This document shows, piece by piece, positions 4,144 to 35,445 of a stretch of 64,000 nt of DNA (position 1 is its first letter; the number at the start of each line of letters is the position of its first letter). The translations under genes were made by a program, and so were the position numbers. The DNA comes from Prevotella sp. P5-108 (lineage in GTDB: Bacteria; Bacteroidota; Bacteroidia; Bacteroidales; Bacteroidaceae). Under the pieces are notes generated by a model. That model saw nothing but the letters and a program-made list of their open reading frames with translations, made no database searches and was not told where the DNA came from. The stretch is from positions 3,664 to 67,663 of the forward strand of contig CAVDHB010000048.1 in assembly GCA_963608705.1 (NCBI GenBank), read 5' to 3'.

Positions 4144-6720
4144 ATGAGACTGACAACTTTCACAGCGATTGCAATGATGATTCCCTTTTGTGTGGCGGCT
4201 GAGGCGCAGCCTGTGCGGCAACGTCTTGACACGGGGTGGACGTTCAGACAGGGACGTTTGAATAATTGGTATCCGGCCGTGGTGCCTGGCACAGTGCATA
4301 CGGACTTGATGAGGAACAAGAAAATAGACGATCCTTATTTTCGCCTGAACGAACGGGGCGCACAATGGATAGACAAAGAGGATTGGATTTACCGTACTTC
4401 GTTCACGCTTCCTGCCGATATGAAAGACAAGGAGCGAATAGACCTTGTGTTCGAGGGGTTGGACACGTATGCGGATGTGTCGCTAAACGGACACAAGATT
4501 CTGTCTGCGGACAATATGTTCAGAGGCTGGAGGGAGTCTGTCAAACCTTACTTGAAAGACGGGGCGAATAGCCTTGAAGTGTATTTCCATTCTCCTATCA
4601 AACGGGATATTCCCAAATGGGATTCCATTCCGTTCCATTATGAGGCGGGCAATGACCAGTCTGAGAACGGAGGAGTGTTCGACAAGAAAGTCTCCGTGTT
4701 CGCCCGTAAGGCGGGGTATCATTATGGATGGGACTGGGGTCCCCGTTTGGTTACGTCTGGAATATGGCGGCCTGTATTTGTGGAGGCTTGGAGTGAGGCG
4801 AGGCTTTCGGACGTGTTCATGCGTCAGTTGTCCGTGTCTTCCCGGTTGGCGAAACTCGCTGGGGAGGTGGAAGTGACGGTGGACAAGGCGATGGCTGGAG
4901 CGGAGATTGTGATTGCGGACAAAGTGTCTGGCAAGAAATATGCCGTGAGAAAGGTGGATTTGCGGAAAGGTGTGAATAAGTTCTCTTTGCCGTTTTCTAT
5001 CAAGAACCCGAAACTCTGGTGGTGTAACGGATTGGGAGAACCTCATTTATATCAGTTTGTAACTACGGTGAGACACGGACAGAAAACCATAGACCGCAAA
5101 GAGGAGACCACGGGTATCCGTTCCATCCGTGTGGTACGCAAGCCCGACCAGTATGGCAAGACGTTCTATTTTGAGTTGAACGGAGTGCCAGTCTTTATGA
5201 AGGGGGCGAACTATATTCCGCAAGACGTTTTCTTGCCTCGTGTGACGCAGGCAGACTACGAGAAAACCATCAAGGATGCGGTGGATGTACACATGAACAT
5301 GCTGAGAGTATGGGGCGGGGGGATTTATGAGAACGATTTGTTCTACGACCTCTGCGACCGGAACGGTTTGTTGGTATGGCAAGACTTCATGTTCGCCTGT
5401 AGCTTGTATCCGGCGGAAGGAGAATGGCTGGAGAATGTGCGTCAAGAAGCCATTGACAATGTGCGCCGCCTGCGGAACCATCCTTGTATCGCCCTTTGGT
5501 GTGGAAACAATGAATGTCAGGACGCTTGGTTCAACTGGGGATACCGCAAGAACTACACGAAACAGAACCCGGAATGGGCTGCTAAAATATGGAAGCAATA
5601 CAATGACCAGTATTTTGACGTGCTTCCGAAGGTCGTGAAGGAATACGCCCCTGAGACGTTCTATACTTCTTCATCTCCTTTCGGACTGCCGAATCAGGGC
5701 AGTGATGACCACAACGGTGATTATCATTATTGGGAAGTATGGCAGGGGTTCAAGCCTGTATCGGCTTTCAACACACAGAAAAGCCGTTTCTTCAGCGAAT
5801 ACGGCTTCCAGTCGTTCCCCGACATTGAGTCCGTGAAGCGTTATGCGCCTGAAGCGGAGGATTGGAGCATTACTTCCGATGTGATGATGTCGCATCAAAG
5901 GGGAGGAGCGTTGGCCAATTCCCGTATGGAGAAAATCATGAATGAGGAATACCGCAAGCCGAAAGATTTTCCTTCTTTCCTTTACATGAGCCAAGTGTTG
6001 CAGGCGGACGCTATTAAAGTGGCGATGGAGGCGCATCGTCGCCAGAAACCTTACAACATGGGGTCTTTGGTATGGCAGCATAACGATTGCTGGCCGGTGG
6101 CCAGTTGGTCTTCAAGAGATTATTACGGACGTTGGAAAGCGCAACACTATTTCACGCGCAAGTCTTTTGCGGACATACTGGTTTCTCCTGTATGGGACGG
6201 ACAGAACAAGACGGTGGAAATCTACCTGGTTTCCGACCGCATGAAAAGTTGCAAGGGCGTATTGAGCTGGGAAGTACGGAAGTTCGACGGCACCTTGATT
6301 GGACAGTCGAAGAAAGAAGTGAGCATAGAGGCTAATGGCGGCAAGTGTGTGGCGCAGGTAGATGTGCGTAGTTTGCCCGGTTGGAATCCGAAGGAAACGT
6401 ATTTGAGGGCGGTTTACACTGCGGGAAAACACACATACGACAACAATTTCTTCTTCCTGCGTCAGAAAGAAGTGGATTTTCCCAAGCCGTCGGTCTCCAC
6501 TTCCTTGCGAAAAGTGGAAGACGGCTATGAGCTAAGTTTGAAAAGTAAGCAATTCGCCCGGGCGGCATGGATCAGTACTGGTGATGGGGATGCCTCATTC
6601 AGTGATAATTACATGGACTTGCTGCCTGGTAAGGAGGTAAAGGTGAAGATACACACGAAACTTCCGATGGAAACATTGAAAAAACAACTGAAAGTCACTA
6701 CGGTGGCTGATACTTATTGA
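4144..6720 (+). CDS. Glycoside hydrolase family 2 beta-mannosidase
   Basis: GYHYGWDWGPRLVTSGIWRPV and ALWCGNNEC (acid/base Glu region) motifs of GH2 beta-mannosidases. ATG 4144 gives a signal peptide (MRLTTFTAIAMMIPFCVAAEA); the ORF-track start 4048 adds 32 non-signal residues. Confidence 0.85.
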   Translation: MRLTTFTAIAMMIPFCVAAEAQPVRQRLDTGWTFRQGRLNNWYPAVVPGTVHTDLMRNKKIDDPYFRLNERGAQWIDKEDWIYRTSFTLPADMKDKERIDLVFEGLDTYADVSLNGHKILSADNMFRGWRESVKPYLKDGANSLEVYFHSPIKRDIPKWDSIPFHYEAGNDQSENGGVFDKKVSVFARKAGYHYGWDWGPRLVTSGIWRPVFVEAWSEARLSDVFMRQLSVSSRLAKLAGEVEVTVDKAMAGAEIVIADKVSGKKYAVRKVDLRKGVNKFSLPFSIKNPKLWWCNGLGEPHLYQFVTTVRHGQKTIDRKEETTGIRSIRVVRKPDQYGKTFYFELNGVPVFMKGANYIPQDVFLPRVTQADYEKTIKDAVDVHMNMLRVWGGGIYENDLFYDLCDRNGLLVWQDFMFACSLYPAEGEWLENVRQEAIDNVRRLRNHPCIALWCGNNECQDAWFNWGYRKNYTKQNPEWAAKIWKQYNDQYFDVLPKVVKEYAPETFYTSSSPFGLPNQGSDDHNGDYHYWEVWQGFKPVSAFNTQKSRFFSEYGFQSFPDIESVKRYAPEAEDWSITSDVMMSHQRGGALANSRMEKIMNEEYRKPKDFPSFLYMSQVLQADAIKVAMEAHRRQKPYNMGSLVWQHNDCWPVASWSSRDYYGRWKAQHYFTRKSFADILVSPVWDGQNKTVEIYLVSDRMKSCKGVLSWEVRKFDGTLIGQSKKEVSIEANGGKCVAQVDVRSLPGWNPKETYLRAVYTAGKHTYDNNFFFLRQKEVDFPKPSVSTSLRKVEDGYELSLKSKQFARAAWISTGDGDASFSDNYMDLLPGKEVKVKIHTKLPMETLKKQLKVTTVADTY

Positions 6721-6722
6721 CT

Positions 6723-7460
6723 ATGAGTTATACATTTGAGATTTGCGCCAACTCCGTGGATAGTTGTGTGGCGGCACAGAAAGGCGGTGCACAGCGTGTG
6801 GAACTATGCGCCGGTATGCCGGAAGGAGGGACGACTCCTTCTTATGGAACGATAAAATGGGCGAGGAAAAGCATTGACATCCGTCTGCATGTGATTATCC
6901 GTCCTCGGGGTGGTGACTTTCTTTACACGCCTCTTGAGCTGGATATGATGGAAGAAGACATTCGCATCGCAAAGGATTTGGGTGCGGACGGAGTGGTGTT
7001 CGGCTGTTTGCTTCCCGACGGACAACTGGACTTGCCGGCTATGAGTCGGTTGAAAAAGGCGGCAGGAAACTTGTCTGTCACCTGCCACCGGGCGTTTGAT
7101 TATGTGAAGAATCCGTCAGAGGCATTGGAGCAATTGATAGATCTGGGTGTGGACAGAGTGCTCACCTCTGGCCAGCAACCTACGGCTTTGCAAGGTGCCT
7201 CTCTCTTGGGGGAGTTGGTGAGACAAGCGAAAAAACGTATTATTATTATGCCTGGATGCGGAGTGAATGCAGGCAATATCAGAGAATTGGCCGACATTAC
7301 ACACGCCGAGGAGTTCCATTTCTCCGCAAGAGAGATACAGAAAAGCCGGATGAGACTTCGCAATCCGGCACTTTCCATGGGAAATCCAGACATGGATGAG
7401 TATGCGCATCCCGTTACCACGGCAGAAAAAGTGAAGGCTACGATTGCCGCTTTGAGGTGA
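6723..7460 (+). CDS. cutC: Copper homeostasis protein CutC family
   Basis: MSYTFEICANSVDSCVAAQKGGAQRVELCAGMPEGGTTPSYG is the conserved CutC N-terminus. The ATG lies 2 nt after the mannosidase stop. Confidence 0.9.
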   Translation: MSYTFEICANSVDSCVAAQKGGAQRVELCAGMPEGGTTPSYGTIKWARKSIDIRLHVIIRPRGGDFLYTPLELDMMEEDIRIAKDLGADGVVFGCLLPDGQLDLPAMSRLKKAAGNLSVTCHRAFDYVKNPSEALEQLIDLGVDRVLTSGQQPTALQGASLLGELVRQAKKRIIIMPGCGVNAGNIRELADITHAEEFHFSAREIQKSRMRLRNPALSMGNPDMDEYAHPVTTAEKVKATIAALR

Positions 7461-7793: not shown

Positions 7794-8000
7794 TTCTGTA
7801 TCTCTACATAAGAGATACAGAAATCGGCTGCAAATATATTAAAAATATTGCACATACAGTGAGTTGGGACGAAAAAAATAACTCACATTATCTTCCAAAA
7901 TTTATCGCTGTTTACTTTCTTTTACAGTTCGTGAGTCCCTTACTCGTACATTATCAATGAATTACATGGCATTCTGTATCTCTTATGTAGAGACGCGGAA
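7794..8000. promoter_or_regulatory. Putative invertible CPS promoter segment flanked by inverted recombination sites; -7 box TATATTTG on minus strand (7838-7831), OFF orientation
   Basis: Left site is 7794-7822, TTCTGTATCTCT-ACATA-AGAGATACAGAA. Right site is 7972-8000, TTCTGTATCTCT-TATGT-AGAGACGCGGAA. The spacers are reverse complements. The only TAnnTTTG match inside the segment is on the minus strand. Confidence 0.65.
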
Positions 8001-8256: not shown

Positions 8257-10320
8257 ATGTGGTTCGTCGTCAAGACCGAAGTTTTCACCGAGCGGCGTTC
8301 GATAGACACCCTGCGTGAGAAATTCAAGGACACAATAGCCGACATCTATTTTCCCTTAAGAAAGAGGGTCTATAAAGATGACCAAGGGGAAGAGAAAGCG
8401 CGTTTCGTGCCTGTCCTGCGGGGACTGTTCTTCATCAGGGTCCAGGATGAAAGGCGTTTGAGCTGGATTCTTTCCCCGTACGGGTATTTCATGTACAAAG
8501 GCGTTGACTACACGGGAGGTGCGGAGACAGAACGCTTCTTCCTCACCCAGGCGCATCTTCTTTGCGCCGACCGCAAGTCATTGACATTGGGGGAAATCAT
8601 CAGACAGGCGAGAATCCCCGACGAGGAAATGGACCGCTTCATCTATTATACCGATAAACTCGGTGAGGGCATTGAGGGCCTGAGTATCGTGGACCAAAGA
8701 TACGGCGACCTCGTACGGGTGAATGACACCATACGCATTCTCAGCGGACCTTTGACGGGTTGGGTCGGCGTAATCAGGCAAATCAAACACAAGGGCAGGA
8801 AGGACCGTCATCTTCTGGTACGTTTCGGAAACAACCACTGTCTTAACATCTCCAATATCCGCCAGTACGACATGCGGATAGAGCACGAGGCGACGAAGGG
8901 CGCAAAGTCCGAGGAGGTGGGCGTATGGCGCGCCATAGACCAGATGACAGGCTATCTGCAGGCCAAGAATCCCGCCGGCAACGCGGCGGACACATTACGG
9001 AATATTTTCAAAGACTATCAAAAGAAAACCGCGGTCTACCGCAACCGCCGTATGTCAGACATCGCATACAGCGACAAGACAGCCGAAATGAAAGTCGCCC
9101 GGCGGAAAGAGGTTCTTGGGCATATTGACGAATCCATGCGGAACAATTTCCTTATACTCGCCAATTATTTCAAGGCGGACGGTGAGACCGTCGACCGGGG
9201 ATTAAAAGAACTCATCCCCGATGTGGTACTCCGTCCCTTCCTCACCCCCACTTCAGGCGTATCCATTCCACAAGGACAAGAGTATGCGGTTTTGTGCCAT
9301 AACGAAATCACAGAGCTCATCCTTCGCCGCAACCTCCGTGCTTTTTTCCGGGGCGAAGAATACGACTCCGGGAAGTACGCCCCCGTCTTTGAGGAAGACT
9401 ACGAGTATTACGCCCACTTCGCACTTTTGAAAACAGAGGAGGGCAAACTTAAGATTATCTGCTCATGGGGAGGTTTCTATGATTATTACGCCTCACAGAA
9501 CAAGGAAGAGCGGACGAAATTCATCGATGACTTAGAAGCGAAAAAATACCCCCGTCTGCATTACCTGCTGACGGAAAGCCCTTACAAGTTCGAGAGTACG
9601 AACGGCATAGGCGGCTTTTCCCTGGAAACAGACATGAATTACACAACCGATCCAGAGGAATTAGGCCGAGAGGCGAGCGAATACCTCACTCATAATCCCT
9701 CACTCCTCACCCAACTCACAGCCGCTGCCGTGGAAGTGTGGCAAGGAGCGCGCCTACTGGTTTGGCGGAAGTTGCTCCAACGTTACGTCCTGCTCCATAA
9801 GGTGCCGGTCACAGACCAACCTTCCGTCATCACTCACGACACCAAACTGGAAGAGGCGTTTGTGAAGGCGGACGGCAAGCTCGACATGACGAAGGTGGCC
9901 GAAACTTTGACAGCAAGTAAAGGAGTCATTGAGGAACATTTGGAAAACAAAGAGGTGGCGGAAGCCGTTTTCAAGTTTCTTTCCACCTCCTTGGTGTATG
10001 CCACCCATTTCGCCCAAGACGAGCTGTACAACTATGTCTGTGACACGTTCAACCCCGACAGAACCTTGTCCGGGTTGTTCAATCGCATTGTCGAACAATG
10101 CGGGGAGGCATCCAATAGTCGTTCCATCGTCAGGCATCTGCACAAAGGCATGGCCGAGTTGCAAGAGCTGGACTCTTGGAGATATTTCAAGTTCCCTTCA
10201 TTTCTCAAGCAAACGAGAAAGACAGACAAGGTAATTTCTTCCTTTCGTCCATCCACAACGCCTGGCCGGCTTGCAAAAAGGCGATCCGTCAAAGTAAGCA
10301 CTCCTGAAAAAGTATCCTAA
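8257..10320 (+). CDS. UpxY-like NusG-family transcription antiterminator with ~470-aa uncharacterised C-terminal extension
   Basis: The N-terminal ~215 aa shows an NGN-like region (WFVVKTEVFTERRSIDTLREK...FVPVLRGLFFIRV), the UpxY-typical IPDEEMDRFIYY, and a KOW (GDLVRVNDTIRILSGPLTGWVGVIRQIKHKGRKDRHLLVRF). The remaining sequence has no motif I recognise. Confidence 0.8.
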   Translation: MWFVVKTEVFTERRSIDTLREKFKDTIADIYFPLRKRVYKDDQGEEKARFVPVLRGLFFIRVQDERRLSWILSPYGYFMYKGVDYTGGAETERFFLTQAHLLCADRKSLTLGEIIRQARIPDEEMDRFIYYTDKLGEGIEGLSIVDQRYGDLVRVNDTIRILSGPLTGWVGVIRQIKHKGRKDRHLLVRFGNNHCLNISNIRQYDMRIEHEATKGAKSEEVGVWRAIDQMTGYLQAKNPAGNAADTLRNIFKDYQKKTAVYRNRRMSDIAYSDKTAEMKVARRKEVLGHIDESMRNNFLILANYFKADGETVDRGLKELIPDVVLRPFLTPTSGVSIPQGQEYAVLCHNEITELILRRNLRAFFRGEEYDSGKYAPVFEEDYEYYAHFALLKTEEGKLKIICSWGGFYDYYASQNKEERTKFIDDLEAKKYPRLHYLLTESPYKFESTNGIGGFSLETDMNYTTDPEELGREASEYLTHNPSLLTQLTAAAVEVWQGARLLVWRKLLQRYVLLHKVPVTDQPSVITHDTKLEEAFVKADGKLDMTKVAETLTASKGVIEEHLENKEVAEAVFKFLSTSLVYATHFAQDELYNYVCDTFNPDRTLSGLFNRIVEQCGEASNSRSIVRHLHKGMAELQELDSWRYFKFPSFLKQTRKTDKVISSFRPSTTPGRLAKRRSVKVSTPEKVS

Positions 10321-10463: not shown

Positions 10464-12035
10464 ATGATGGAACGACGCAGAAAACTTTACCCCATAGGAA
10501 TACAGACTTTCTCGAACATACGGGAAGGCGACTATCTGTATATAGACAAGACGGAGTATGTGTACTGTATGGCCACATCTGACGCCAAGTACATATTCCT
10601 CAGTCGTCCACGCAGGTTTGGGAAATCTCTGCTCACCTCCACTCTGGAAAGTTATTTCTCCGGGAAAAAGGAATTGTTCAAAGGCTTGGCCATTGAGAAG
10701 CTGGAGAAGGAATGGACGGAATACCCAGTGCTTCACTTTGACATGAGCTTGGGTAAGTACATGGACAAGGAACAGCTGGAAGAATACTTGTGCTATCAGC
10801 TTCTTGACAAAGAATCTGCTTTTGGCATAACAAATCCTGTTAAAGGAACAAACAACCGTCTGACAAACCTTATCAAGACGGCATATAATAAGATCGGCAA
10901 GAAAGTCGTCATTCTCATAGATGAATATGACGCCCCTTTGCTCGATGTGGTGCATGAGGAGAAGAATCTCCCTGTCCTACGTGACGTGATGCGCAACTTC
11001 TACAGTCCGTTGAAAGGTTGCGACCCCTATTTGCGCTTCGTCTTCCTGACTGGAATAACGAAGTTCTCACAGCTCAGCATCTTCAGCGAGCTGAACAACA
11101 TCGACAACATCAGTATGGATGAGCGTTACGCTGCCGTATGTGGCATAACCGAAGAGGAGATGCTCACTCAAATGGACAACGACCTGAACCTGTTGGCGGA
11201 TAATTTGAAAATGACCAAGGAGGATGCTCTGTCAAAATTGAAGGAAAACTACGACGGCTATCACTTCACGTGGCCTTCCCCTGACATCTACAATCCTTTC
11301 AGTTTGCTCACGGCGTTGTCTAAAGGTAAGATCGGATCTTACTGGTTCGGTAGCGGAACTCCCACCTACCTGATAGAGATGCTGGCAAAATATCATGTCA
11401 CACCTCAGAGAATAGGCGGAATGAGTATTCCCGCCGATGCTTTTGATGCCCCGACAGAACGGCTGATAGATATATCACCACTGCTTTACCAAAGTGGATA
11501 TATCACCATCAAAGGCTATTCCTACATTACGGAGCTGTACACATTGGACATACCTAACAAGGAGGTGAGGGTAGGCTTGATGAAAAGCCTGCTTCCGAAT
11601 TATGTCAGCGTCCATACGAACATGGGGCTTTCCACAATAGGACAGATGTACGGGCGCATATATGAGGATGACATGGACGGAGCGTTAGAACTCTTGCAAA
11701 CATTTCTCTCCACCGTTCCCTATTGCGACCATACCGACTACGAGGGGCATTATCAGCAGATGCTCTACGTGATTTTCAGCATCTTGGGAATGTATACCGA
11801 TGTAGAGGTACGCACTCCTCGTGGAAGAGTAGACATAGTAATGCGTTCACCTCATACCTTATATATTATGGAGTTGAAACTCGACAAGGGTGCAGACGTG
11901 GCGATGAACCAGATAGACTTGAAGCAGTATCCTGAGCGTTTCCGCCTGTACAGACTGCCTATCGTTAAGGTGGGTATCAGTTTCGACAGCGGAACACACA
12001 CACTTGGGGAATGGAAGATTACGCAAGACGCTTAA
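10464..12035 (+). CDS. AAA-ATPase-like domain protein with C-terminal PD-(D/E)XK nuclease-like domain (PF09820/PF08011-type)
   Basis: YPIGIQTFSNIREGDYLYIDKTEY...SRPRRFGKSL N-terminus. C-terminal GRVDIVMRSPHTLYIMELKLDK (D..E.K). This family is very common in Bacteroides. Confidence 0.8.
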   Translation: MMERRRKLYPIGIQTFSNIREGDYLYIDKTEYVYCMATSDAKYIFLSRPRRFGKSLLTSTLESYFSGKKELFKGLAIEKLEKEWTEYPVLHFDMSLGKYMDKEQLEEYLCYQLLDKESAFGITNPVKGTNNRLTNLIKTAYNKIGKKVVILIDEYDAPLLDVVHEEKNLPVLRDVMRNFYSPLKGCDPYLRFVFLTGITKFSQLSIFSELNNIDNISMDERYAAVCGITEEEMLTQMDNDLNLLADNLKMTKEDALSKLKENYDGYHFTWPSPDIYNPFSLLTALSKGKIGSYWFGSGTPTYLIEMLAKYHVTPQRIGGMSIPADAFDAPTERLIDISPLLYQSGYITIKGYSYITELYTLDIPNKEVRVGLMKSLLPNYVSVHTNMGLSTIGQMYGRIYEDDMDGALELLQTFLSTVPYCDHTDYEGHYQQMLYVIFSILGMYTDVEVRTPRGRVDIVMRSPHTLYIMELKLDKGADVAMNQIDLKQYPERFRLYRLPIVKVGISFDSGTHTLGEWKITQDA

Positions 12036-12101
12036 ACTCTATGGAGCAGCCTTGAAAGCATGGAACAACTGTGGAAAAAAGCACGTTGAATCCTCTCATG
12101 T

Positions 12102-12551
12102 ATGTCCGAGATAATTTTCAATATATACGGAGGCAATAACCAAATCCTCCCCAATGCCGCTCATGCCGAGCAGCACTTCTACGGCGACGCTTTCGCGGAG
12201 GAACGACTCGTAAGAGAGAGCGTCGCGCCCCTTACGGCAGAGGAGAAGGCACTGTCCATCTATATAAACAAGGTGGAAAAGTTGCGTGGTTACATAGCCC
12301 TCCTTCGTTCCTGCAAGACCGCAGGGGATTTTGGCGAGGTGGTCGCCACGATGCGTCAGCAAGAGCCATCGCTCACCGACGAGCTGATAGTGAAGCGGCG
12401 TTTCCTCTCCCTTCTCCTTCCTTTTCTTCCCAAATGGGAAAAAGGGCGGAGCATAGACAACCTGCGGGTGGCTGTCAACAACGCATGGTCGGCTCGGAAG
12501 AAAACGCTTCATCCGACTGGTCGAACTGCCATTCAAAAGTCATGTAAGTGA
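12102..12551 (+). CDS. Hypothetical protein (149 aa)
   Basis: ATG-initiated ORF co-directional with neighbours, with plausible helical composition. An equal-length antisense ORF exists, so the strand choice is not certain. Confidence 0.5.
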   Translation: MSEIIFNIYGGNNQILPNAAHAEQHFYGDAFAEERLVRESVAPLTAEEKALSIYINKVEKLRGYIALLRSCKTAGDFGEVVATMRQQEPSLTDELIVKRRFLSLLLPFLPKWEKGRSIDNLRVAVNNAWSARKKTLHPTGRTAIQKSCK

Positions 12552-12658
12552 CTTTGCAAAGTTACGAAAGCGTTGATAGAATGAAATAATTATCTGAATG
12601 TTTGATTGTCTCAAATACAATTGTATATCTGTGTCAGATTTTAAAGATAAGACGTATT

Positions 12659-12883
12659 ATGGCAACTCAAGTGTTACGATTCAATCTCACTCAGCAAGCC
12701 GTGCTCAATGTGGTAGCTTGCTTACAATCTGAGCAAGATTTGGCAGATTTGAGACGGACTCTCGTTAAGTTCATGAACGAACGTATGCAGCGAGAAATGG
12801 ACAAATTGTGGGAATCCGGCTCTTGGTCTGAGGAAAGACTGGAATCCATGCGCTCTGAGCACCTACGAACCCTTTACAAATAA
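12659..12883 (+). CDS. Putative antitoxin partner of the PIN toxin (74 aa)
   Basis: Small helical ORF from ATG 12659 ending 7 nt before the PIN gene. The assignment is positional only. Confidence 0.5.
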   Translation: MATQVLRFNLTQQAVLNVVACLQSEQDLADLRRTLVKFMNERMQREMDKLWESGSWSEERLESMRSEHLRTLYK

Positions 12884-12890
12884 TTTACGT

Positions 12891-13304
12891 ATGAAAAGGC
12901 GTATTGTCTTGGATACAAATTGTTTGTTGCAGATAATTTCTCGCAAAAGCAAGAACTATTTCCTGTGGAATGGATTCTTGAATGGTGACTATTGGCTTTG
13001 TTATACGACAGAAGGAGTACGAAGAATTATAGGAACGAAAGCCAATCCAGTCATTGCTTCAATGGTGTTGAACATTATATGCGAAGCACCTAACACGTTA
13101 AGGGTTGACGCCCGTTATCATTGGAATCTGATTACGGAGGATTCGAATGACAATAAGTTTGTTGACTGTGCCATATTCTGTAATGCGGATTATATTGTTT
13201 CTGAAGATAAACATTTTAAGGTCTTGAAAAAAGTTAAATTTCTAAAAGTTTTCGTCATTCGATTAGAAGAATTTGCAAGACTGTTTAGAACACAAGAACA
13301 ATGA
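12891..13304 (+). CDS. PIN-domain toxin (TIGR00305-like)
   Basis: IVLDTNCLL N-terminal acidic motif and DNKFVDCAIFCNADYIVSEDKHF C-terminal motif. Confidence 0.75.
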   Translation: MKRRIVLDTNCLLQIISRKSKNYFLWNGFLNGDYWLCYTTEGVRRIIGTKANPVIASMVLNIICEAPNTLRVDARYHWNLITEDSNDNKFVDCAIFCNADYIVSEDKHFKVLKKVKFLKVFVIRLEEFARLFRTQEQ

Positions 13305-13747
13305 GGTTCTTTAAGCCATAGTTTAAAGGCAAAATCTGTACTGAACATATTATGTACGTTCGGGCTTTTGGCAAGTTGTAAATGTAAAGTAGTTGAAACA
13401 AATGCTCCGTCATGATTATAAGAAATGTACAGGCGAAGAACCCAAGTTCGTAAATGTATGGTAATATGAAAGAGCTATCAAGCGTTGAGAAATCGCTTAT
13501 TCAAATCATGGTTCGCATACGCTAATGAAAAAGACCAATACATGATAATGATGGCCAACGTGCGTGATTTGGAAGAAATGGACATTTATGCTGCTATGAT
13601 TCTGAGAAAAGACAACCCGCATTTTGTCGATTATATATCTGAATTCAGCAAGAATGTCAATATGTTTATGATAAAGTCAGAGTAAGAATCATATAAAACG
13701 AAGGCAACCCGATAGACTGTAATATTGTAGAGTACGCTGTCCAGCTA

Positions 13748-14034
13748 TTGACTACACTGCGCAATTCCATGCTCCACTTTGTCAGCGACGAAAGAGCGAA
13801 GATGGCTGCCACTTACCACAACATTATCAGTACGGTGAAGCTGCAAGGAAGGTCGGCATGGGATTATCTTGTAAAGTTTTTCGTTAATGTCTTTAACGGT
13901 TGCAGGGATTTTATCAGCCTACGGACAGACAATATCGGATTGGCAGTATGCTAATAGTTAATAAACACATTGAATTTTAACCACTCAATATATAGGCACC
14001 TATACAAGGGGTATGCCCTAATTTGAGTGCTTAC
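13748..14034 (+). mobile_element. IS66-family remnant: 3' end of transposase plus terminal inverted repeat
   Basis: LRNSMLHFVSDERAKMAATYHNIISTVKLQGRSAWDYLVKFF matches the conserved IS66 TnpC C-terminus (..NxLFxGSxxGA..YSLIxTCKLNG..YL..). The downstream sequence ends ..GAGTGCTTAC, the reverse complement of a GTAAGC-type IS66 end. No upstream transposase body is present. Confidence 0.65.
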
Positions 14035-14243
14035 TTTATGGGCGAGGAGGTGGATATCTCATTCTTGCCATGTGACTATGTTCGCCATTTTGAAGACGGC
14101 AAGGATGCAGAGGTCACTAAGCCATCCCAAGCTGTCGCTTGATTGTTAAATAATAAAAATCGAAACTTTATTCAAAAATACTGGTATAACTAACCCACTG
14201 ATAAATAGTGTGAACGCTGTATTGGTGGCTTACATTTTAAAAT

Positions 14244-14600
14244 ATGAAAATCATCTTAAATACAGAAAATACATTCCAAGCTGTAAAGTTGAGGGAACTG
14301 GTAATTAAAGGTATCAAGGGGGAAATAGAAAATATAAATATCAATACTTGGAGTTATACTAAGTCTGTTGAAAAATATGATATTGTTTTCCATAACCCAG
14401 AGCAATACTTAAACGATCCAGAAAAAAATGTACTTTTCAAATTAGATGTAGATGGTTCTTTTATCGTACTATCAATTGTATGGTGGAAGAAGAATCCTGA
14501 ACCTTCTGATGAAATGAAATGCTACCATGTAGGTAAGTTGGTAGAAATGCTGTTATGCCATTTTCGAAACAACTATATAAAACTTAGTATTGTTGACTAA
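14244..14600 (+). CDS. Hypothetical protein (118 aa), upstream partner of the HEPN-like gene
   Basis: AT-rich ATG ORF ending 11 nt before the next gene. No recognisable motif. Confidence 0.6.
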   Translation: MKIILNTENTFQAVKLRELVIKGIKGEIENININTWSYTKSVEKYDIVFHNPEQYLNDPEKNVLFKLDVDGSFIVLSIVWWKKNPEPSDEMKCYHVGKLVEMLLCHFRNNYIKLSIVD

Positions 14601-14611
14601 ATATAACGATT

Positions 14612-15922
14612 ATGGGTGCAAATATAGGAAACGAAGATATGAATCCCATCTTAGAAGAGGTTGTAAGTAATTTGAATAACTTTATAGAAAATATTAATTG
14701 CTTACGTGAAACATACGATTTCAGCAAAGGTATGCTTAATCAGCAATTACAATCTGCTACCAAAAGCTATGAGATTTTTATTGCTCCATTTCGTTCATTT
14801 GATGAAAAGGGTAATTTTCAGTTGGATGTTCCTATAGAAAAAATAAAAGAGTACAAGAAGTTATGCAAGAGAAAATGCCGTGCAGAAAAGGCTTTCCAAC
14901 TGATACCGCCTTCATATATTGTAACTTTGGTATCTTTATATGATACTTTTTTGGCTGGTTTTGTTAGGTGTATATATAGCTTGAAGGAAAGTTTGATTCT
15001 TGAAAGTAATATAAGCTTTAGTTTTCGGGATATAGCTGAATATGGCTCTATAAAAGAAGTAAAGAAGAACGTAATAGATAATACCATTGACAGACTATTT
15101 CGCGACTCGCATACGGAACAAATCGACTGGATAGAAAAAGCTATAGATGTTAAGACGTTGAAGCAATTTTCTGGATGGGCTTCTTTTGTTGAATTGACTG
15201 AGAGACGTAATCTTTTTGTTCATTCCGATGGAATGGTATCGTCTCAATATTTGAAAGAATGCAAAAAGTGCAATTATGACACTGATGGTATTGAGGTTGG
15301 AAGTAAACTCTTTGCTGATGATAGTTACTTCGAAAACTCATACAAATTACTTTATGAAATGTCTGTAATGATGACACAGATATTACTTAACAAGCTTTAT
15401 ATTGGTGTCTATACAAACGATACTGGGGTGCGAGATAAAATATTGATAGGTAATATCTATGAATTAATTAGCGAAAAACTTTACGATGTAGCTATTAATG
15501 TTTCGATGTTTGCTCGTGATGGAAAAAGTTTTAAGCGTAATAATAAAGATAGAACTTATATTGAGTTAAATTTGGCTCAAGCTTATAAATGGTCAGGGCA
15601 TAATGACAAATGCCTTGCAGTATTGAGGGATTTGGATACTAGCGCAATGAATCTTGACTTACAGATACCTAAGAAAGTGTTAGAAGAAAAATATGATGAG
15701 GTATATACTATGATGAAATCTTTAGGTTCAGGCAGTGATATACTTACCAAAGAGGCTTATCGTGAATGGCCAATATTCAAAGAAATAAGAAAGCAAGAGA
15801 AGTTCAAGAATGTATTTGAAATGATATTTGCAGAAAAATTATTATTACAGAATGTTCCAACCTCAGTGGAATCTTCTATAAAATGCAAGGATGAAATATC
15901 CTCAAGAGAAGTCGAATTATAA
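14612..15922 (+). CDS. HEPN-like (RNxxxH motif) protein with helical-repeat C-terminal region
   Basis: ELTERRNLFVHSDG contains R199-N-x3-H204 (nt 15206-15223), the canonical HEPN RNase motif in a helical context. The C-terminal ~170 aa looks TPR/helical-repeat-like. Confidence 0.6.
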   Translation: MGANIGNEDMNPILEEVVSNLNNFIENINCLRETYDFSKGMLNQQLQSATKSYEIFIAPFRSFDEKGNFQLDVPIEKIKEYKKLCKRKCRAEKAFQLIPPSYIVTLVSLYDTFLAGFVRCIYSLKESLILESNISFSFRDIAEYGSIKEVKKNVIDNTIDRLFRDSHTEQIDWIEKAIDVKTLKQFSGWASFVELTERRNLFVHSDGMVSSQYLKECKKCNYDTDGIEVGSKLFADDSYFENSYKLLYEMSVMMTQILLNKLYIGVYTNDTGVRDKILIGNIYELISEKLYDVAINVSMFARDGKSFKRNNKDRTYIELNLAQAYKWSGHNDKCLAVLRDLDTSAMNLDLQIPKKVLEEKYDEVYTMMKSLGSGSDILTKEAYREWPIFKEIRKQEKFKNVFEMIFAEKLLLQNVPTSVESSIKCKDEISSREVEL

Positions 15923-15934
15923 TTCCTAGAAAAA

Positions 15935-17473
15935 GTGTCAACTCAAACATCAGATAACAACAAACGAATAGCAAAGAACACGCTGCTGCTGTATGTGCGG
16001 ATGCTGTTCATGATGGCAGTGTTGCTGTACACAAGCCGTGTCATATTGAATACGCTGGGTGTGCAGGACTTCGGACTGTACAATGTCGTTGCCGGGTTCG
16101 TGACCATGTTCACGTTCATCAATACCGCCATGGCATCCGCCACACAACGGTATCTGAACTTTGAGCTTGGAAAGAATAATGATGAACGGCTGAGAAAAGT
16201 GTTCTCAACGAGCGTGAATATCCATGCGGTGATATCTTTGGTCATATTGCTACTTGCGGAAACCGTCGGGCTGTGGTTCGTATACACTCAACTGACAATT
16301 CCGAACGGGCGTATGGATGCCGTGCTTTGGGTCTATCAGTGTGCCATACTTTCCACTATCGTGTTGGTGATGAGCGTTCCGTACAATGCCGCAATCATCG
16401 CCCATGAAAAGATGGGGGCATTCGCCTACATATCCGTTGCGGAGGTTACTCTGAAACTGCTCATTGTCTACATGCTGACGATAGGCGATTTTGACAAACT
16501 GAAACTGTATGCCATACTGATGCTGGCTGTGCAGGTGTTTGTAAGAATCATATATGGCTGGTACAGCGGAAAGCATTTCAAGGAGACTAAGTATCATTGG
16601 ATATGGGACAAGGCGTTGTTCAAGGAAATGACAGGTTTTGCAGGGTGGAGCTTGTTCGGCAATCTTGCGGCTGTCGCTTTTACTCAAGGCGTGAACGTCC
16701 TGTTGAACATATTTTTTGGTCCAGTTGTCAATGCAGCCCGTGGTGTTACTGTGCAGGTACAGAATGCGATAATGAACTTCTGCCGCAATTTCCAGATGGC
16801 ATTGAACCCTCAAATTGTAAAACTCTATGCTTCTGATGAATTGGGAAGTATGCACAGACTGATATACCGCAGCACAAAGTTCTCGTTTTTCCTGTTGCTG
16901 TTACTCTCCCTTCCTGTCATGATAGAAGCGGACTATATATTAAAATTGTGGCTGAAAATTGTTCCCGAGCATACAGTCTCATTTGTCAGGATAATCCTTT
17001 GCATATCACTTGTTGATGCGATAGGCAATCCGCTGATAACAGCGGCACAGGCAAATGGCCATATCCGTAAATACCAGGCTGTGGTGGGCGGAATTCTTTT
17101 GGGCATAGTTCCAGTATCATACATCGTGTTGAAACTTGGCGCACCGCCAGTAGGCGTATTCATTGTACACTTCACAATGATCGTGTTGGCTCATGTCTCA
17201 CGTGTTTGGATGATACGCCCGATGATTTCGATGCGCATAAGGGAATATATCGTGAAAGCCATTCTTCCTTTGCTCTATGTGAGCGTTCCGTCAGTGCTTG
17301 TGTCAGTCATGGCGTTCATGCTGATGCCTGAAGGCTTCCTTGGCTTCATTGCCGTATGCCTCGTGTGCGCCTTGTCAGTATCTATGTTGACATACGTTCT
17401 TGGTTTTGACGCACATGAGCGTGAGTTCGTGAAAAGTAAAGTTGTCGGAATGCTTCAAAAGATACGCAAATGA
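15935..17473 (+). CDS. wzx: Wzx-type polysaccharide flippase (MOP superfamily)
   Basis: Multi-TM protein with conserved IAKNTLLLYVRMLFMMAVLLYTSRVILNTLGVQDFGLYNVVAG N-terminus. That region precedes the first in-frame ATG, so the GTG start at 15935 is implied. Confidence 0.85.
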   Translation: MSTQTSDNNKRIAKNTLLLYVRMLFMMAVLLYTSRVILNTLGVQDFGLYNVVAGFVTMFTFINTAMASATQRYLNFELGKNNDERLRKVFSTSVNIHAVISLVILLLAETVGLWFVYTQLTIPNGRMDAVLWVYQCAILSTIVLVMSVPYNAAIIAHEKMGAFAYISVAEVTLKLLIVYMLTIGDFDKLKLYAILMLAVQVFVRIIYGWYSGKHFKETKYHWIWDKALFKEMTGFAGWSLFGNLAAVAFTQGVNVLLNIFFGPVVNAARGVTVQVQNAIMNFCRNFQMALNPQIVKLYASDELGSMHRLIYRSTKFSFFLLLLLSLPVMIEADYILKLWLKIVPEHTVSFVRIILCISLVDAIGNPLITAAQANGHIRKYQAVVGGILLGIVPVSYIVLKLGAPPVGVFIVHFTMIVLAHVSRVWMIRPMISMRIREYIVKAILPLLYVSVPSVLVSVMAFMLMPEGFLGFIAVCLVCALSVSMLTYVLGFDAHEREFVKSKVVGMLQKIRK

Positions 17474-18739: not shown

Positions 18740-18774
18740 TTTGGGTGCTTAATATTGGTATTGCCCTAAGTTTG
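18740..18774 (+). promoter_or_regulatory. Candidate internal promoter for the DUF262/DUF1524 gene
   Basis: TAAGTTTG (18767-18774) fits the TAnnTTTG -7 box, 28 nt before ATG 18802. A TTTG at 18740-18743 gives a 23-nt spacer, longer than the 19-21 optimum. Confidence 0.4.
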
Positions 18775-18801: not shown

Positions 18802-20535
18802 ATGAATATCAAGCCTGCTGATAAAACAATAAAAGCTCTTCTAAAATCAGGCCGTAAATTTATGATACCACGATTTCAGAGAGATTACTCTTGGGAAAAG
18901 AAAAATTGTGAAGAGTTCCTTGAAGATATAATTAAGGGATTAATTTATAAAAACGGTAAGTTAGGAACTTCTTCATATTTTTTGGGAACAATGCTTTTCA
19001 TTGGTAACTTTGATGAGAAAAGTGATAAAGAAATTCAAATTGTAGACGGACAACAACGCATTACAACAATAACAATATTGTTTTCGGTTATTTCCGATAT
19101 TTTTAGAGAAAAGGGTGAAGAGAAATTAAGTGAATTGATTTTCAGCTATATAATGACAAGTGATGATGATGGGAATTCTGTCAGAATTATAAAAAGTGAA
19201 AGTAGTTACCCATATTTTGCTTTTTATATCCAAGATAGAGAAAAAACGCAAATGCCTGAACCATCGTCTGAAGAAGAATTATGTATTCAAAGTACGTATA
19301 AGTTGTTTAAAAACCGTTTGGATGAGAAAAACCTAAAATCCTTTTTGGAAAAGAACTGTGAGAACTTTGATGTTGGTGTTGGACTTATTGAAATACTAAA
19401 GGCTATAAGAGACCAAATTTTGAATTGTATATTTATTTCAATATCTACAGATGACAAATTACAGGCTTATAGAATTTTTGAGATTCTTAATGCAAAAGGT
19501 AAAAAACTCGCAGCAATAGATTTGATTAAAAATAGATTGTTTGAGAAACTTCCCCAAACAGAACCTGCCGATTTTGCGAAATGCAAATGGGATGAACTAA
19601 AAAGAATAATAAACGAGTGTGATGTGGCTTCCGTTGGGATAGGGACTTTTTACCGACATTTTTGGAATTCTTGTTACAAACAAACTGGGACAAATCAATT
19701 GTATGACAAATTCTTGTCAATGATTAATAAAAGTGATTATGAATCGTTCCTTAATTCTTTGGTTGTTAATGCAAAATATTATGTACAAATAATAAAGCCT
19801 TTAAGAGAAAATTACGAAAATAGGAAAGAGTATTTTTGGCTAGTACAAAGTTTTAAAGTCCTTTCTGATTACTTCGGAATTGCACAAGTTCGTGTCGTAT
19901 TGATGGCATTGTTATGGGCGAAAGACAACAACCGCATATTCACTGCAGATTTTAAGCAATCAATCTTGTTTTTAGAACATTTCCATTTCGCTTATACTGC
20001 TTTATTATCTGGCAAGGCAAATAAACTTGATGGTATTTATTCAAAATTCGCAATAGCTTTAAGGAAAAGTAACAGTAAAAATCAAAGTAAGCAGATAATA
20101 AAGACGAATCTTTATGACTGCTTGAAAGTATTGCTTCCAACTGAAGAACAGTTTACAGAAAAATTTTTATCTCTTAGTTATAGTAAAAAGTCTGCGCCAT
20201 CTAATATGAAGTGCAAATATGCACTTCTTAAATTGAACTGCTATTATCAAGGAAAGGAAATTTTTGAAGATGACTCTTCAATAGAGCACATCATCCCTGA
20301 GTGTGAAGAAAGTGATGCCAATAACATTGGCAATTTAATTATATTAGAACAAAAATTGAATACAGAAGCCGATAAAAAGGATTATTCTGAAAAACAGCTG
20401 ATATATAAAAAATCTAATTACAAATGGATTAGAAAATTTTCAGAAACGCATCCATCATGGATACAAGATATGATAAATGATAGGGCTAAAGAAATGGCGA
20501 CTTTATTTTACAATAAGATTATCGTCTTCAATTAA
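18802..20535 (+). CDS. DUF262/DUF1524 (GmrSD-like) putative type IV restriction/nuclease protein
   Basis: N-terminal FMIPRFQRDYSWEKKN and VDGQQRITT (DUF262/ParB-like). C-terminal SIEHIIPE...NIGNLIILEQKLNTEA (DUF1524 His-Me finger). Confidence 0.85.
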   Translation: MNIKPADKTIKALLKSGRKFMIPRFQRDYSWEKKNCEEFLEDIIKGLIYKNGKLGTSSYFLGTMLFIGNFDEKSDKEIQIVDGQQRITTITILFSVISDIFREKGEEKLSELIFSYIMTSDDDGNSVRIIKSESSYPYFAFYIQDREKTQMPEPSSEEELCIQSTYKLFKNRLDEKNLKSFLEKNCENFDVGVGLIEILKAIRDQILNCIFISISTDDKLQAYRIFEILNAKGKKLAAIDLIKNRLFEKLPQTEPADFAKCKWDELKRIINECDVASVGIGTFYRHFWNSCYKQTGTNQLYDKFLSMINKSDYESFLNSLVVNAKYYVQIIKPLRENYENRKEYFWLVQSFKVLSDYFGIAQVRVVLMALLWAKDNNRIFTADFKQSILFLEHFHFAYTALLSGKANKLDGIYSKFAIALRKSNSKNQSKQIIKTNLYDCLKVLLPTEEQFTEKFLSLSYSKKSAPSNMKCKYALLKLNCYYQGKEIFEDDSSIEHIIPECEESDANNIGNLIILEQKLNTEADKKDYSEKQLIYKKSNYKWIRKFSETHPSWIQDMINDRAKEMATLFYNKIIVFN

Positions 20536-26959: not shown

Positions 26960-27796
26960 ATGGCAAAAGAGAAGATAAAAAGGAAAAACGTTGAGATGGC
27001 ATTTATTAATGTCGTTCTTTATCCAACAGAAAAGCAAAAACCTGAAGAGTATGTAAAATTGCTCTATTCCATTATGGCTGGTCGTGTGATGATAAATAGT
27101 CGAAATTCATACCGTTCAACATTGCTACGAGCTTTTGATTTTGAGGGTGATTATTATCACGGTTACTTTTGTAATGCCATATTTCTAAAGGATGATTTCT
27201 GGGCGTTAAATATTAGAGATAATCTGCTTGAAGAGGCAGTTATTGATCCTAATAAGGTATTAGATCCCAAGTATATGGAATTTTGGTTTTATCCTAAATA
27301 TCATAGGTTTGCTGTTCGTAAATCGGACGTTACGAAAATTGTAAAATTCTTGATTGGCAGTTTTAAATTCAAGTTGGGAGATGAAGATAGTTTTGCTGTC
27401 AATATAGAAAAGGATAAGAATATAATTGAAAGAATAATCAATTCAGAAGGCATAGTAAAGATAAAGATTTCCATTAGATATTCCAATAATGACAATTGTG
27501 AGGACTGGGAAGATTTGGATTCAGTATTACGTAATTCGGATACGAATAAGGCAGAATTATCTTTGCAATCAAGCAATGCTAAGCCAATACAGGCTAAAAA
27601 GAATTGGTTGTTGAGAGCCTTTTTGGTTCTAAGTAAATCTTATGGTACAGCTACAGCCAAAATTATCAACGAAAATGGATACATAGAAGATGTAGATACG
27701 AAAAGGTATCCAAATACACGTACAGTAGATTTCAATCAAAACCCAGAAAAAGACATAAGAGATTGCATTGAGGGTATCGCGCAAAATAAAGTATAG
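26960..27796 (+). CDS. DUF4747-like cytoplasmic protein (no glycan-enzyme motif)
   Basis: AFINVVLYPTEKQKPEEYVKLLYSI N-terminus, L-PKYMEFWFYPKYHRFAV, and IKISIRYSNNDNCEDWED. These resemble my recollection of the DUF4747 layout, but this is unverified. No TM or signal peptide. Confidence 0.5.
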   Translation: MAKEKIKRKNVEMAFINVVLYPTEKQKPEEYVKLLYSIMAGRVMINSRNSYRSTLLRAFDFEGDYYHGYFCNAIFLKDDFWALNIRDNLLEEAVIDPNKVLDPKYMEFWFYPKYHRFAVRKSDVTKIVKFLIGSFKFKLGDEDSFAVNIEKDKNIIERIINSEGIVKIKISIRYSNNDNCEDWEDLDSVLRNSDTNKAELSLQSSNAKPIQAKKNWLLRAFLVLSKSYGTATAKIINENGYIEDVDTKRYPNTRTVDFNQNPEKDIRDCIEGIAQNKV

Positions 27797-27798
27797 TT

Positions 27799-28380
27799 AT
27801 GGGGATAAGGAAACCACCTACATTGCAATCAAAAGGATGGAGTGGCTTTAATTTTGTCTACTTTAAGTTTTGCGGAAAACAGTTTAGGCATTCACTTCGG
27901 TGGGCAAGTTGTGCTGTTGTTCTTGCTTTTATTGTATCTGTGCTGTCTCCAAAACCGTATTATGATTTATTAGTTGTTTTGACTAGTATCGGTCTGAAGG
28001 TTGCACCCCCACTTTTAGGCTTTACTCTTTCCGGGTATGCATTGGTTATAGGCGTAAACGATGCCAATGTTTCAGAACGATTGAAGAGATACAAAACAAA
28101 AACAGGTATTACAATGTATCAGCAGCTTTATACTACCTTCATAGCCATGCTTGGATCAATATTTCTACTGCTGGTAGAAAGTGTCATATTGCACTACGCT
28201 TTGGAATCAGGTATCATGTTGTCCAATTCTATTGTAGTTGGTATTGTTAATATTAGTATCTTTTTAATATATTCGTTCACTATGTTTTATGCCTTGTTTG
28301 CAGTCAAAGATTTACTGTCAAATTTATTTAGTCTAGGACAGACAATTAATAACATTCATCAAGAGACACATAAACAATAA
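27799..28380 (+). CDS. Small 4-TM membrane protein (193 aa), translationally coupled to the upstream gene
   Basis: The start is 2 nt after the upstream stop. There are four hydrophobic helices (AVVLAFIVSVL; LLVVLTSIGLKVAPPLLGFTLSGYALVIGV; FIAMLGSIFLLLVESVILHYAL; VVGIVNISIFLIYSFTMFYALFAV). Confidence 0.7.
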   Translation: MGIRKPPTLQSKGWSGFNFVYFKFCGKQFRHSLRWASCAVVLAFIVSVLSPKPYYDLLVVLTSIGLKVAPPLLGFTLSGYALVIGVNDANVSERLKRYKTKTGITMYQQLYTTFIAMLGSIFLLLVESVILHYALESGIMLSNSIVVGIVNISIFLIYSFTMFYALFAVKDLLSNLFSLGQTINNIHQETHKQ

Positions 28381-35150: not shown

Positions 35151-35445
35151 AATTGTTCTATTAAAAACTCAATGATAGCAATATGCCATCTATTTGATGG
35201 CAAATATACTAATTCCAGTGTGAATTCATTCGGTGTTCTCTTAATGTTTTATGTAATTTAACTAATATGAGGATAAGAAGTATGGTTTATCTACTTATGG
35301 AACGATTGTTGGCTCCATATACGGATAAAGCATATTTCTTTTCATAATCCATCAGTGTTGAACTGGGAATACATTTATTTGCACGAATATATGAGCATTA
35401 TCCGCATTTATTCGCGCATATATCATACTGACACATTTTGTTTTG

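Follow-up and report, generated by a model that had tools for sequence, protein, structure and literature searches.

A two-gene cassette encoding a candidate HEPN ribonuclease with a TPR-like region, inserted at the head of a Prevotella capsule operon

Introduction

In bacteria, ribonucleases (RNases) of the HEPN superfamily are well known as effectors of immunity and of toxin systems. The window analyzed here, a stretch of 64,000 nt of Prevotella sp. P5-108 (contig CAVDHB010000048.1, positions 3,664 to 67,663 of the forward strand), contains a cassette of two genes, a small one for a 118-aa protein and a large one for a 436-aa protein, which lies directly ahead of the gene for a Wzx-type flippase (wzx) in a capsular polysaccharide (CPS) locus. 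An earlier reading of the sequence alone, referred to below as the original prediction, had proposed that the large protein carries a HEPN-type RNxxxH motif followed by a helical-repeat region, and that the small protein may be its antitoxin or modulator.

Layout, composition and edges of the cassette

Both cassette genes are present in the list of open reading frames (ORFs) of the window, and the elements at the locus are arranged as follows.

14244..14600, + strand: partner gene, 118 aa, ATG start
14612..15922, + strand: large gene, 436 aa, ATG start, stop codon TAA at 15920-15922
14234..15973, + strand: two-gene cassette, putatively mobile, whose DNA is common to other Bacteroidales loci by blastn
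15935..17473, + strand: Wzx-type flippase gene, 512 aa, GTG start, the first capsule gene downstream, outside the cassette, named by homology to a PF01943 protein

A gap of 11 nt separates the two ORFs, and the stop codon of the large gene is followed by 12 nt and then by the GTG of wzx at 15935. The original prediction had these coordinates and spacings exactly right (14244-14600, 14612-15922, the 11-nt gap and the 12 nt to the wzx GTG). However, it described the module as fused to the front of the flippase gene, which is wrong, as the cassette is inserted immediately upstream of wzx and no gene fusion is present. The G+C content is 30.5% for the small gene and 32.5% for the large gene, with 30% and 29%, respectively, at third codon positions (GC3), in comparison with 46.2% (GC3 56%) for wzx and 48-49% for the window backbone. 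The AT-richness claimed earlier from a hand estimate (~37% vs. ~50%) is thus real, and the measured contrast (30-33% vs. 46-49%) is even larger.

The extent of the cassette was defined by blastn against other Bacteroidales loci (numbered here with the prefix L). Loci L082-85 (89% identical) match 14234-16110, and loci L093-96 (80% identical) match 14241-15973, while the matches of loci L086-90 (66-69% identical) begin at 14240 or 14243 and end at 15829 or 15849; beyond the cassette, the flanking DNA is unlike from locus to locus. The left edge falls at 14234-14243, i.e., 1-10 nt ahead of the small-gene ATG, and the right edge at 15829-16110, near the stop codon, with one case lying 175 nt inside wzx, which gives a unit of ~1.7 kb with sharp edges. 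Because the genes have a G+C content of 30-33% against a 48% backbone, the edges are sharp and nine different Bacteroidales contexts are known (see below), the cassette is best read as a foreign, horizontally acquired, self-contained and mobile two-gene unit. A search for terminal repeats around it returned short, chance-level repeats only. Neither cassette protein shows a domain for glycan synthesis, export or regulation in Pfam, NCBIfam and PADLOC scans, in agreement with the original prediction, which had seen no glycan-synthesis signature in either; the flanking genes do have such domains.

Conserved motif and family of the large protein

The features of the large protein that are needed in the following are these.

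15101..15112, + strand: invariant R164-D-S-H167, a second conserved Arg/His pair, in an insert before the motif helix (translation RDSHTEQ)
15191..15223, + strand: predicted catalytic motif E194-L-T-E197-R-R199-N200-L-F-V-H204 (Rx4H), from the translation and its invariance
14834..15406, + strand: HEPN-like core domain, residues ~75-265, from profile matches and AlphaFold2
15422..15829, + strand: C-terminal helical-repeat (TPR-like) region, residues ~271-406, from AlphaFold2 helices and weak TPR hits

Positions 15191-15232 of the window translate to ELTERRNLFVHSDG, which contains R199, N200 and H204, confirming the residue numbering given in the original prediction. A homolog search with the 436-aa protein yielded 332 clusters, and scanning species-representative genomes, one for each species, turned up 173 relatives in many phyla, including Bacteroidota, Acidobacteriota, Nitrospirota, Cyanobacteriota, Proteobacteria, Firmicutes, Planctomycetota and others. 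The only name that public sources give to this family is "hypothetical protein".

Among 35 homologs with 40-89% identity, the block E194-L-T-E-R-R-N-L-F-V-H204 shows no variation. In a second alignment of 38 cross-phylum sequences (25-55% identity), the invariant positions are S108, D111, R164, H167, E194, T196 and R198-H204, together with G207, Y213, C217, Y239, N320, D342, W386, P387 and F389. No other feature of the family is as strongly conserved as the ERRNxxxH motif, and R164 and H167, which are invariant in both alignments, may belong to the active site as well. As estimated from residue frequencies, a few percent of proteins of this size would contain the string R-N-x3-H by chance; its invariance across homologs indicates that it is more than a chance occurrence here. 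Lack of conservation among homologs had been set beforehand as a check that could refute the HEPN proposal, and the motif is kept throughout the close and the cross-phylum sets, 72 homologs in all, down to 25% identity.

Profile and structural evidence for a HEPN domain

The most consistent profile match comes from the PADLOC model RTasHEPN (PDLC03820), a HEPN protein associated with defense reverse transcriptases, which matches 20 of the 38 cross-phylum relatives with a best expect value (E) of 2e-6. The same model matches residues 164-212 of the window protein, motif included, although weakly (E 0.046), and this alignment begins at the invariant R164. A Pfam scan of the 72 homologs gave matches to HEPN_RiboL-PSP (PF18735) in nine (7/35 close, 2/38 cross-phylum). 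The best of them, at 3.5e-5, is P0069, a protein 49% identical to the window protein, whose residues 74-204 align with positions 5-160 of the 191 of PF18735 at 24.2 bits; the alignment stops at the motif, ~30 positions short of the profile end. HEPN_Cthe2314 and HEPN_AbiV gave one weak match each, and the only families besides HEPN that were matched repeatedly are TPR repeats. The large protein is related to the PF18735 family, below the membership threshold as curated, and its nearest HEPN groups, as judged from sequence, appear to be the RiboL-PSP / AbiD-AbiF-like and the reverse transcriptase-associated (RT-associated) HEPN proteins.

The AlphaFold2 model of the 436-aa protein is all-alpha, with a predicted local distance difference test (pLDDT) score of 87.7 and a predicted template modeling (pTM) score of 0.83, and it is composed of an N-terminal helical hairpin, the HEPN-like core and a TPR-like C-terminal solenoid. 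The long hairpin is built from helices 12-60 and 75-124, and the invariant D111, with S108, lies in the helix spanning residues 100-124. An insert of short helices holds R164/H167, after which helix 189-205 ends in RNLFVH; a loop with a short helix then leads to the long helix 237-263. The repeat helices (271-287, 291-302, 311-327, 331-340, 348-357, 361-371, 380-385 and 396-406) and weak TPR_6/TPR_14 matches in several homologs bear out the helical-repeat region that had been placed after the motif in the original prediction. A model of the domain alone (residues 72-268) reached a pLDDT of 89.3.

The HEPN superfamily has been described as a four-helix up-down bundle with metal-independent RNase activity that depends on the R and H of a conserved Rx4-6H motif, in which the R is usually followed by a polar N, D or H; helix-2 contributes a conserved acidic residue located near the motif, and members often have inserts between helices 2 and 3 (PMC3710099). 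In the large protein, the spacing is R199-x4-H204 and the residue after R is the invariant, polar N200. In the model, the motif closes a helix at its C terminus, which is the position reported for HEPN helix-3 in the same study, and at every point that can be checked by secondary structure, the model agrees with the published description.

A structure search against BFVD returned one good match, to an uncharacterized phage protein (template modeling score, TM, 0.67; root-mean-square deviation 3.1 Å; E 1.4e-3), and a PHROGs search gave nothing useful. Searches of PDB chains with the cassette proteins also returned D-ribose pyranase (0.039) and dynein-LC8 (0.03-0.4), matches that are regarded as noise.

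The small partner protein

The 118-aa protein has 15 close clusters of homologs and only 55 representatives in 1.84 billion proteins. It was noted earlier as lacking a recognizable motif, and this holds in searches against Pfam, NCBIfam, PADLOC and PDB, including those with alignments A5 and A7, none of which gave a match. Among its close homologs, W36, H50, N62, W81, P87, H95 and G97 are invariant.

In every Bacteroidales locus analyzed by tblastn (L001-5, L081-90, L093-99), the large gene is immediately preceded by an intact ortholog of the small gene, and tblastn recovered the small ORF even where public gene calls had missed it; in L114-L118, small upstream ORFs are called publicly. Between the two genes, the distance is -17 to +31 nt in the ten Bacteroidales loci where it was measured. 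Both proteins rise together in identity from 38/39% to 86/94% (the range for the small protein being 38-100%), and the pair is one inherited unit in Bacteroidales. The small gene is absent outside Bacteroidales, where the large gene is solo and in most cases separated from its neighbors by more than 100 nt. The idea of a universal operon partner for the large gene was dropped after a neighborhood census of 75 non-Bacteroidales loci, in whose 139 flanking genes no recurrent partner was found.

A distant relative of the small protein, P0168 (107 aa, profile E 2.7e-6), is encoded at 5001-5324 of locus L100, upstream of two small ORFs and sbcD/sbcC. No HEPN gene is near it, which indicates that the small-protein fold is not restricted to the cassette. 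This finding and the solo occurrence of the large gene outside Bacteroidales identify the 118-aa protein as a lineage-specific Bacteroidales accessory rather than an antitoxin that the whole family requires; as a predicted modulator of the HEPN protein, it could act as an inhibitor or an adaptor.

In a metagenomic copy of the cassette (L095, 7350-8679), the HEPN gene is broken into ORFs of 128 aa and 313 aa next to an intact small ORF, a state that would be expected of a costly large gene.

Genomic contexts of the cassette and of solo homologs

The cassette is found in nine distinct Bacteroidales contexts, six of which are CPS loci (the window, L082, L086, L093, L115 and L117, at protein identities from 43% to 94%), where it is always co-oriented with the CPS genes. 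The contexts other than the window are listed below.

L082: CPS locus, with wzx, an acyltransferase and GT1 glycosyltransferases
L086: CPS locus, after ugd and an epimerase and before an acetyltransferase, wzx, GT4 and wzy
L093: CPS locus, before wzx, a nitroreductase and a pyruvyl transferase
L115: CPS locus, between a NusG/UpxY gene and rmlA-type genes
L117: CPS locus, mid-locus
L089: defense-type island, the pair beside SLFN_AlbA_2, a PHP-AAA protein and SIR2_2
L113: defense-type island, with an OLD-type TOPRIM protein and AAA_21+RloB
L097: other context, next to a protein kinase

In L114, a partial small ORF lies directly upstream of the large gene, which lies beside AAA_21+RloB and an OLD-type TOPRIM protein, and the pair is also found beside AbiJ_NTD3-AAA plus HNH. 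On a Crinalium plasmid, a solo homolog directly follows hsdS, a PIN-domain gene and hsdR, and relatives are present on 12 IMG/VR viral contigs. The PADLOC candidate PDC-S34 is matched by one of the 38 cross-phylum relatives (E 1.6e-14) and not by the window proteins; literature searches on RiboL-PSP, PDC-S34 and RTasHEPN found no work on the large-protein family.

Two other cassette-bearing CPS loci contain further non-glycan genes, namely an AAA_15/AAA_23 ATPase gene (L093, 12554-13777) and a gene for a GIY-YIG protein (L117, 10811-11119), suggesting that CPS loci collect defense-type cargo in general. No report on defense genes inside CPS loci was found in the literature (searched as UpxY plus defense).

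The capsule locus and its transcription

The 512-aa ORF downstream of the cassette has no Pfam match itself; a PF01943 Polysacc_synt protein of a related locus, with which it shares 43% identity (E 6e-152), justifies the name Wzx/flippase. Beyond wzx, the locus contains FrhB-like genes, pyruvyl transferases, GT2 and GT1/4 glycosyltransferases and an EpsG-type polymerase, and a NusG/UpxY-type antiterminator gene lies upstream of the cassette, identifying it as a Bacteroidales CPS operon, with 25 co-oriented genes separated by short gaps from 8257 to 33389. A scan for one strict consensus, the Bacteroides -7 box TAnnTTTG, found no copy in the 289-nt gap upstream of the cassette or before wzx, although an internal promoter or one of the cassette's own may exist. 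Since wzx is only 12 nt away, a gap too short for a promoter of its own and free of promoter-like elements, the orientation is shared and no strict -7 box is present, the cassette is probably part of the CPS transcript, and the co-transcription with the capsule genes that was suggested by the original prediction is plausible as a predicted transcript.

Several other elements of this locus were observed. The UpxY/NusG-type antiterminator (8257-10320, + strand) is unusually long at 687 aa; its residues 1-~190 match UpxY and LoaP models below their cut-offs and are followed by a C-terminal extension of ~500 residues. About 260-460 nt upstream of this gene, two copies of a palindromic 29-nt sequence (TTCTGTATCTCT..AGAGATACAGAA) are located 149 nt apart at 7794-7822 and 7972-8000, with a 14-nt partial copy at 7331-7344, and this sequence may mark a site of promoter inversion or represent a repeat element. 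Between the antiterminator gene and the cassette, ~3.8 kb of non-capsule cargo (10464-14243, + strand) encodes a protein with AAA-ATPase_like and PDDEXK_9 domains (10464-12035), a 149-aa protein of no known kind, a pair of a 93-aa and a PIN_3 protein (12602-13304) and two short ORFs (13485-13954). The second of these, a 68-aa ORF at 13748-13954, gave only unannotated Bacteroides and Parabacteroides matches by tblastn against plasmids and may be a transposase remnant.

Inside the CPS operon, a gene with a G+C content of 30.7% (18802-20535, + strand) encodes a 577-aa GmrSD-type (DUF262/DUF1524) type IV restriction enzyme (Pfam GmrSD_N 1.6e-37, PADLOC HEC-06 6e-74). It is placed between an FrhB-like gene and a pyruvyl transferase gene and looks inserted into this pair, because the same pair of genes occurs again at 30410-32667, where the two overlap by 4 nt. 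Unlike the cassette, the GmrSD gene has its own TAAGTTTG box at 18767 in the strict -7 scan. Another non-glycan insertion may be represented by genes for a DUF4747 protein (278 aa) and a 193-aa protein of no recognized family, which are 2 nt apart (26960-28380, + strand), have ~33-36% G+C, lie between an acetyltransferase and a glycosyltransferase and have no PADLOC match. Just past the CPS locus, a gene for a 736-aa ResIII/helicase protein (35443-37653, + strand) matches PADLOC models of type IV methyl-directed restriction enzymes (1.3e-30) and PbeA models.

Interpretation and alternatives

The favored explanation, to which slightly better than even chances are given, is that the pair is a horizontally acquired conflict cassette of the phage-defense, abortive-infection or toxin type, built around a HEPN RNase and placed at the head of a CPS operon. 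A conflict or defense role is favored by the copies that lie beside defense-type genes, the solo homolog behind the hsdS, PIN-domain and hsdR genes, the relatives on viral contigs, the phage protein with a matching fold and the PDC-S34 match of one relative. In a healthy cell, the HEPN protein would be held inactive by its own TPR-like module and/or by the small partner; a built-in regulation is suggested by the fact that most homologs are solo. The N-terminal long helical hairpin is the likely dimerization element, and the TPR-like solenoid is a predicted sensor or regulatory module. A trigger, e.g., a phage protein on the repeats or the loss of the partner, would allow two HEPN domains to build a composite site consisting of R199, N200 and H204, probably helped by D111, R164/H167 and E194/E197. 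This site would cleave RNA in a metal-independent manner to leave 2',3'-cyclic phosphate ends, and the cleavage would in turn arrest translation and abort the infection. With the cassette on a UpxY-dependent CPS transcript, its expression would be tied to the on/off state of the capsule locus.

A first alternative is a classical type II-like toxin-antitoxin (TA) addiction module, in which a labile 118-aa antitoxin neutralizes the HEPN toxin and the pair mainly stabilizes the CPS-locus DNA or works by decay of the antitoxin. The tight operon with the small gene first (11-nt gap here, -17 to +31 nt elsewhere), the strict co-inheritance and co-divergence of the pair in Bacteroidales, the L095 variant with a broken large gene and an intact small gene, and the PIN_3 pair located 1 kb upstream in the same island are all consistent with such a module, and HEPN toxins are known as TA toxins (PMC3710099 and PMC11586414). 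However, the large gene is solo with no conserved neighbor in most phyla, so that a separate antitoxin is evidently not needed; moreover, the small protein has no HTH, RHH, MNT or other known antitoxin signature, and its distant relative stands beside sbcCD without a HEPN gene. A plain addiction pair is thus possible for the Bacteroidales clade and leaves the solo homologs unexplained, and this alternative is considered unlikely overall. The antitoxin role offered in the original prediction is likewise doubtful: the strict co-inheritance in Bacteroidales speaks for it, whereas the solo large genes elsewhere and the lack of an antitoxin or DNA-binding domain speak against it.

In a second alternative, the large protein is a capsule-regulatory RNase that cuts competing CPS transcripts or tunes the mRNA of its own operon, complementing UpxY/UpxZ, rather than an immune module. 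Six of the nine distinct Bacteroidales contexts being CPS loci, always in the same orientation, would fit this role, as would the 12-nt distance to wzx and the identity of the first 17 Wzx residues in the window and L082. It is nevertheless improbable, as the same cassette also occurs outside CPS loci (the defense-type islands L089 and L113, and L097), its place within CPS loci varies (before wzx, before rmlA-type genes, mid-locus), and no link to CPS is seen for the solo homologs of Acidobacteriota, Cyanobacteriota, Nitrospira and other phyla. In addition, the G+C content of the cassette is foreign, and the presence of other, clearly defense-type genes such as GmrSD in the same CPS locus points to a landing pad rather than to a CPS function.

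Several results count against the conflict-cassette explanation itself. At the level of profiles, the PF18735 hits all lie under the gathering score (28.4 bits vs. 24.2 bits for the best), the window 436-aa protein has no direct Pfam match (PF18735 included, at E <=1) and no NCBIfam match, and no system-defining model of PADLOC-DB v2.0.0 is matched, the window proteins giving only the RTasHEPN hit at E 0.046. At the level of structure, a Foldseek search of the whole model against 350,542 PDB chains found no HEPN protein and returned only weak TPR proteins (E ~0.08-0.8, TM <=0.28), and a search of the domain model against PDB found no HEPN and nothing significant (best E 0.67, TM <=0.26); sequence and profile searches of PDB chains with the single sequence and with alignments A1, A2 and A3 gave nothing meaningful for the large protein. 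The Foldseek result is a failure to detect, not a demonstration of a different fold. As for distribution, searches for the family in phage GenBank records and in E. coli complete genomes gave no match, and the neighbors of the solo homologs in the 75 non-Bacteroidales loci are mostly housekeeping genes with few integrases/transposases, for which reason the link to defense islands is anecdotal rather than statistical. Finally, a literature search found no work on the family and no experiment on any member, and, as the promoter scan covered one strict consensus, the cassette may have an internal promoter or one of its own.

Part of this evidence could also be taken to mean that the large protein is not a HEPN protein but an all-helical scaffold or adaptor of a new fold, in which ERRNxxxH serves binding or structure and the profile hits reflect motif convergence; this would account for the lack of a structural match to any solved HEPN domain, the lack of a PDB sequence relative, the Pfam hits below the gathering score and the unmatched window protein, but it is very unlikely, since 20 of 38 divergent members match one HEPN model down to 2e-6, a different HEPN model from an independent library reaches 3.5e-5 over ~130 residues that extend beyond the motif, only TPR repeats compete as a repeatedly matched family, and the motif position and its polar neighbor fit the HEPN description.

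The HEPN homology of the 436-aa protein is therefore regarded as highly probable, being supported by sequence, profile and motif position and unconfirmed at the fold level. The HEPN call of the original prediction is strengthened by the profile matches in relatives and by the invariant motif, while a match to a solved HEPN structure by Foldseek is missing.

Comparison with known systems

The RiboL-PSP-HEPN proteins (PF18735), described as "Ribo L-PSP-HEPN" and as distantly related to AbiD/AbiF (PMC3710099), are bacterial predicted RNases that provide the best Pfam match of the relatives and share a conserved Rx4H with a polar residue after the R. However, their endoRNase L-PSP fusion or ParB operon partner is not found in the cassette protein or its neighbors, and the 436-aa protein differs by its N-terminal helical hairpin and its C-terminal TPR-like solenoid. 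The RT-associated HEPN proteins of defense reverse transcriptase (DRT) systems give the match to 20 of 38 relatives, which covers R164...H204 of the window protein. In contrast to these systems, no reverse transcriptase gene is present beside the cassette or its relatives in the neighborhoods examined, the model spans only ~50 residues of the window protein (E 0.046), and the architecture is different.

The architecture itself has counterparts in the HEPN-TPR families LA2681 and C6orf70/DUF4209, which were reported from bacterial conflict or restriction-modification-related neighborhoods (PMC3710099, Table 1) and in which a HEPN domain with Rx4-6H is likewise fused to TPR-type repeats. As neither family gave a sequence match in any scan, the likeness to the 436-aa protein is architectural only. 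AbiD/AbiF and the CBS-HEPN system DS-11 of DefensePredictor (PMC13092281) resemble the large protein as stand-alone HEPN effectors with an attached regulatory domain, and mutation of the HEPN catalytic residues of DS-11 led to a loss of defense (PMC13092281). The regulatory domain of DS-11 is CBS, whereas it is TPR-like here, and the Bacteroidales clade adds the small partner. The HEPN-MNT (HepT/MntA) type VII TA systems are similar in that a HEPN RNase and a small partner gene form a two-gene operon. However, the partner here has no MNT signature, and the HEPN protein, with its additional domains, has three times the size and occurs without the partner in most lineages.

Implications

Three aspects of the cassette are new: a widespread, unannotated family that joins a HEPN core to a helical hairpin and a TPR-like solenoid; a small partner that is confined to Bacteroidales and has no detectable relatives of known function; and the repeated, co-oriented insertion into capsule operons with no obvious promoter of its own. 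The HEPN finding is unsurprising in itself, and the coupling to the capsule operon is the part worth testing.

Bacteroides capsule loci are phase-variable and determine phage susceptibility (PMC13139388). A broader and rather doubtful idea is that the CPS operons of gut Bacteroidales are preferred landing pads for immunity genes that are expressed with the capsule switch, and that the HEPN-TPR protein and its partner constitute a new defense system with a new partner fold. The immunity-type genes behind this idea are the HEPN pair and GmrSD, which share one CPS locus, together with genes for an AAA-ATPase and a GIY-YIG protein in other CPS loci. Since cassettes without clear promoters lie inside a UpxY-antiterminated transcript, the expression of such immunity genes would follow the capsule type, and each capsule-defined subpopulation would then have a different combination of surface barrier and intracellular defense. 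If cassette expression does follow the capsule switch, the same subpopulations would couple phage resistance at the surface with resistance inside the cell, and this coupling would bear on gut phage-host dynamics and on phage therapy.

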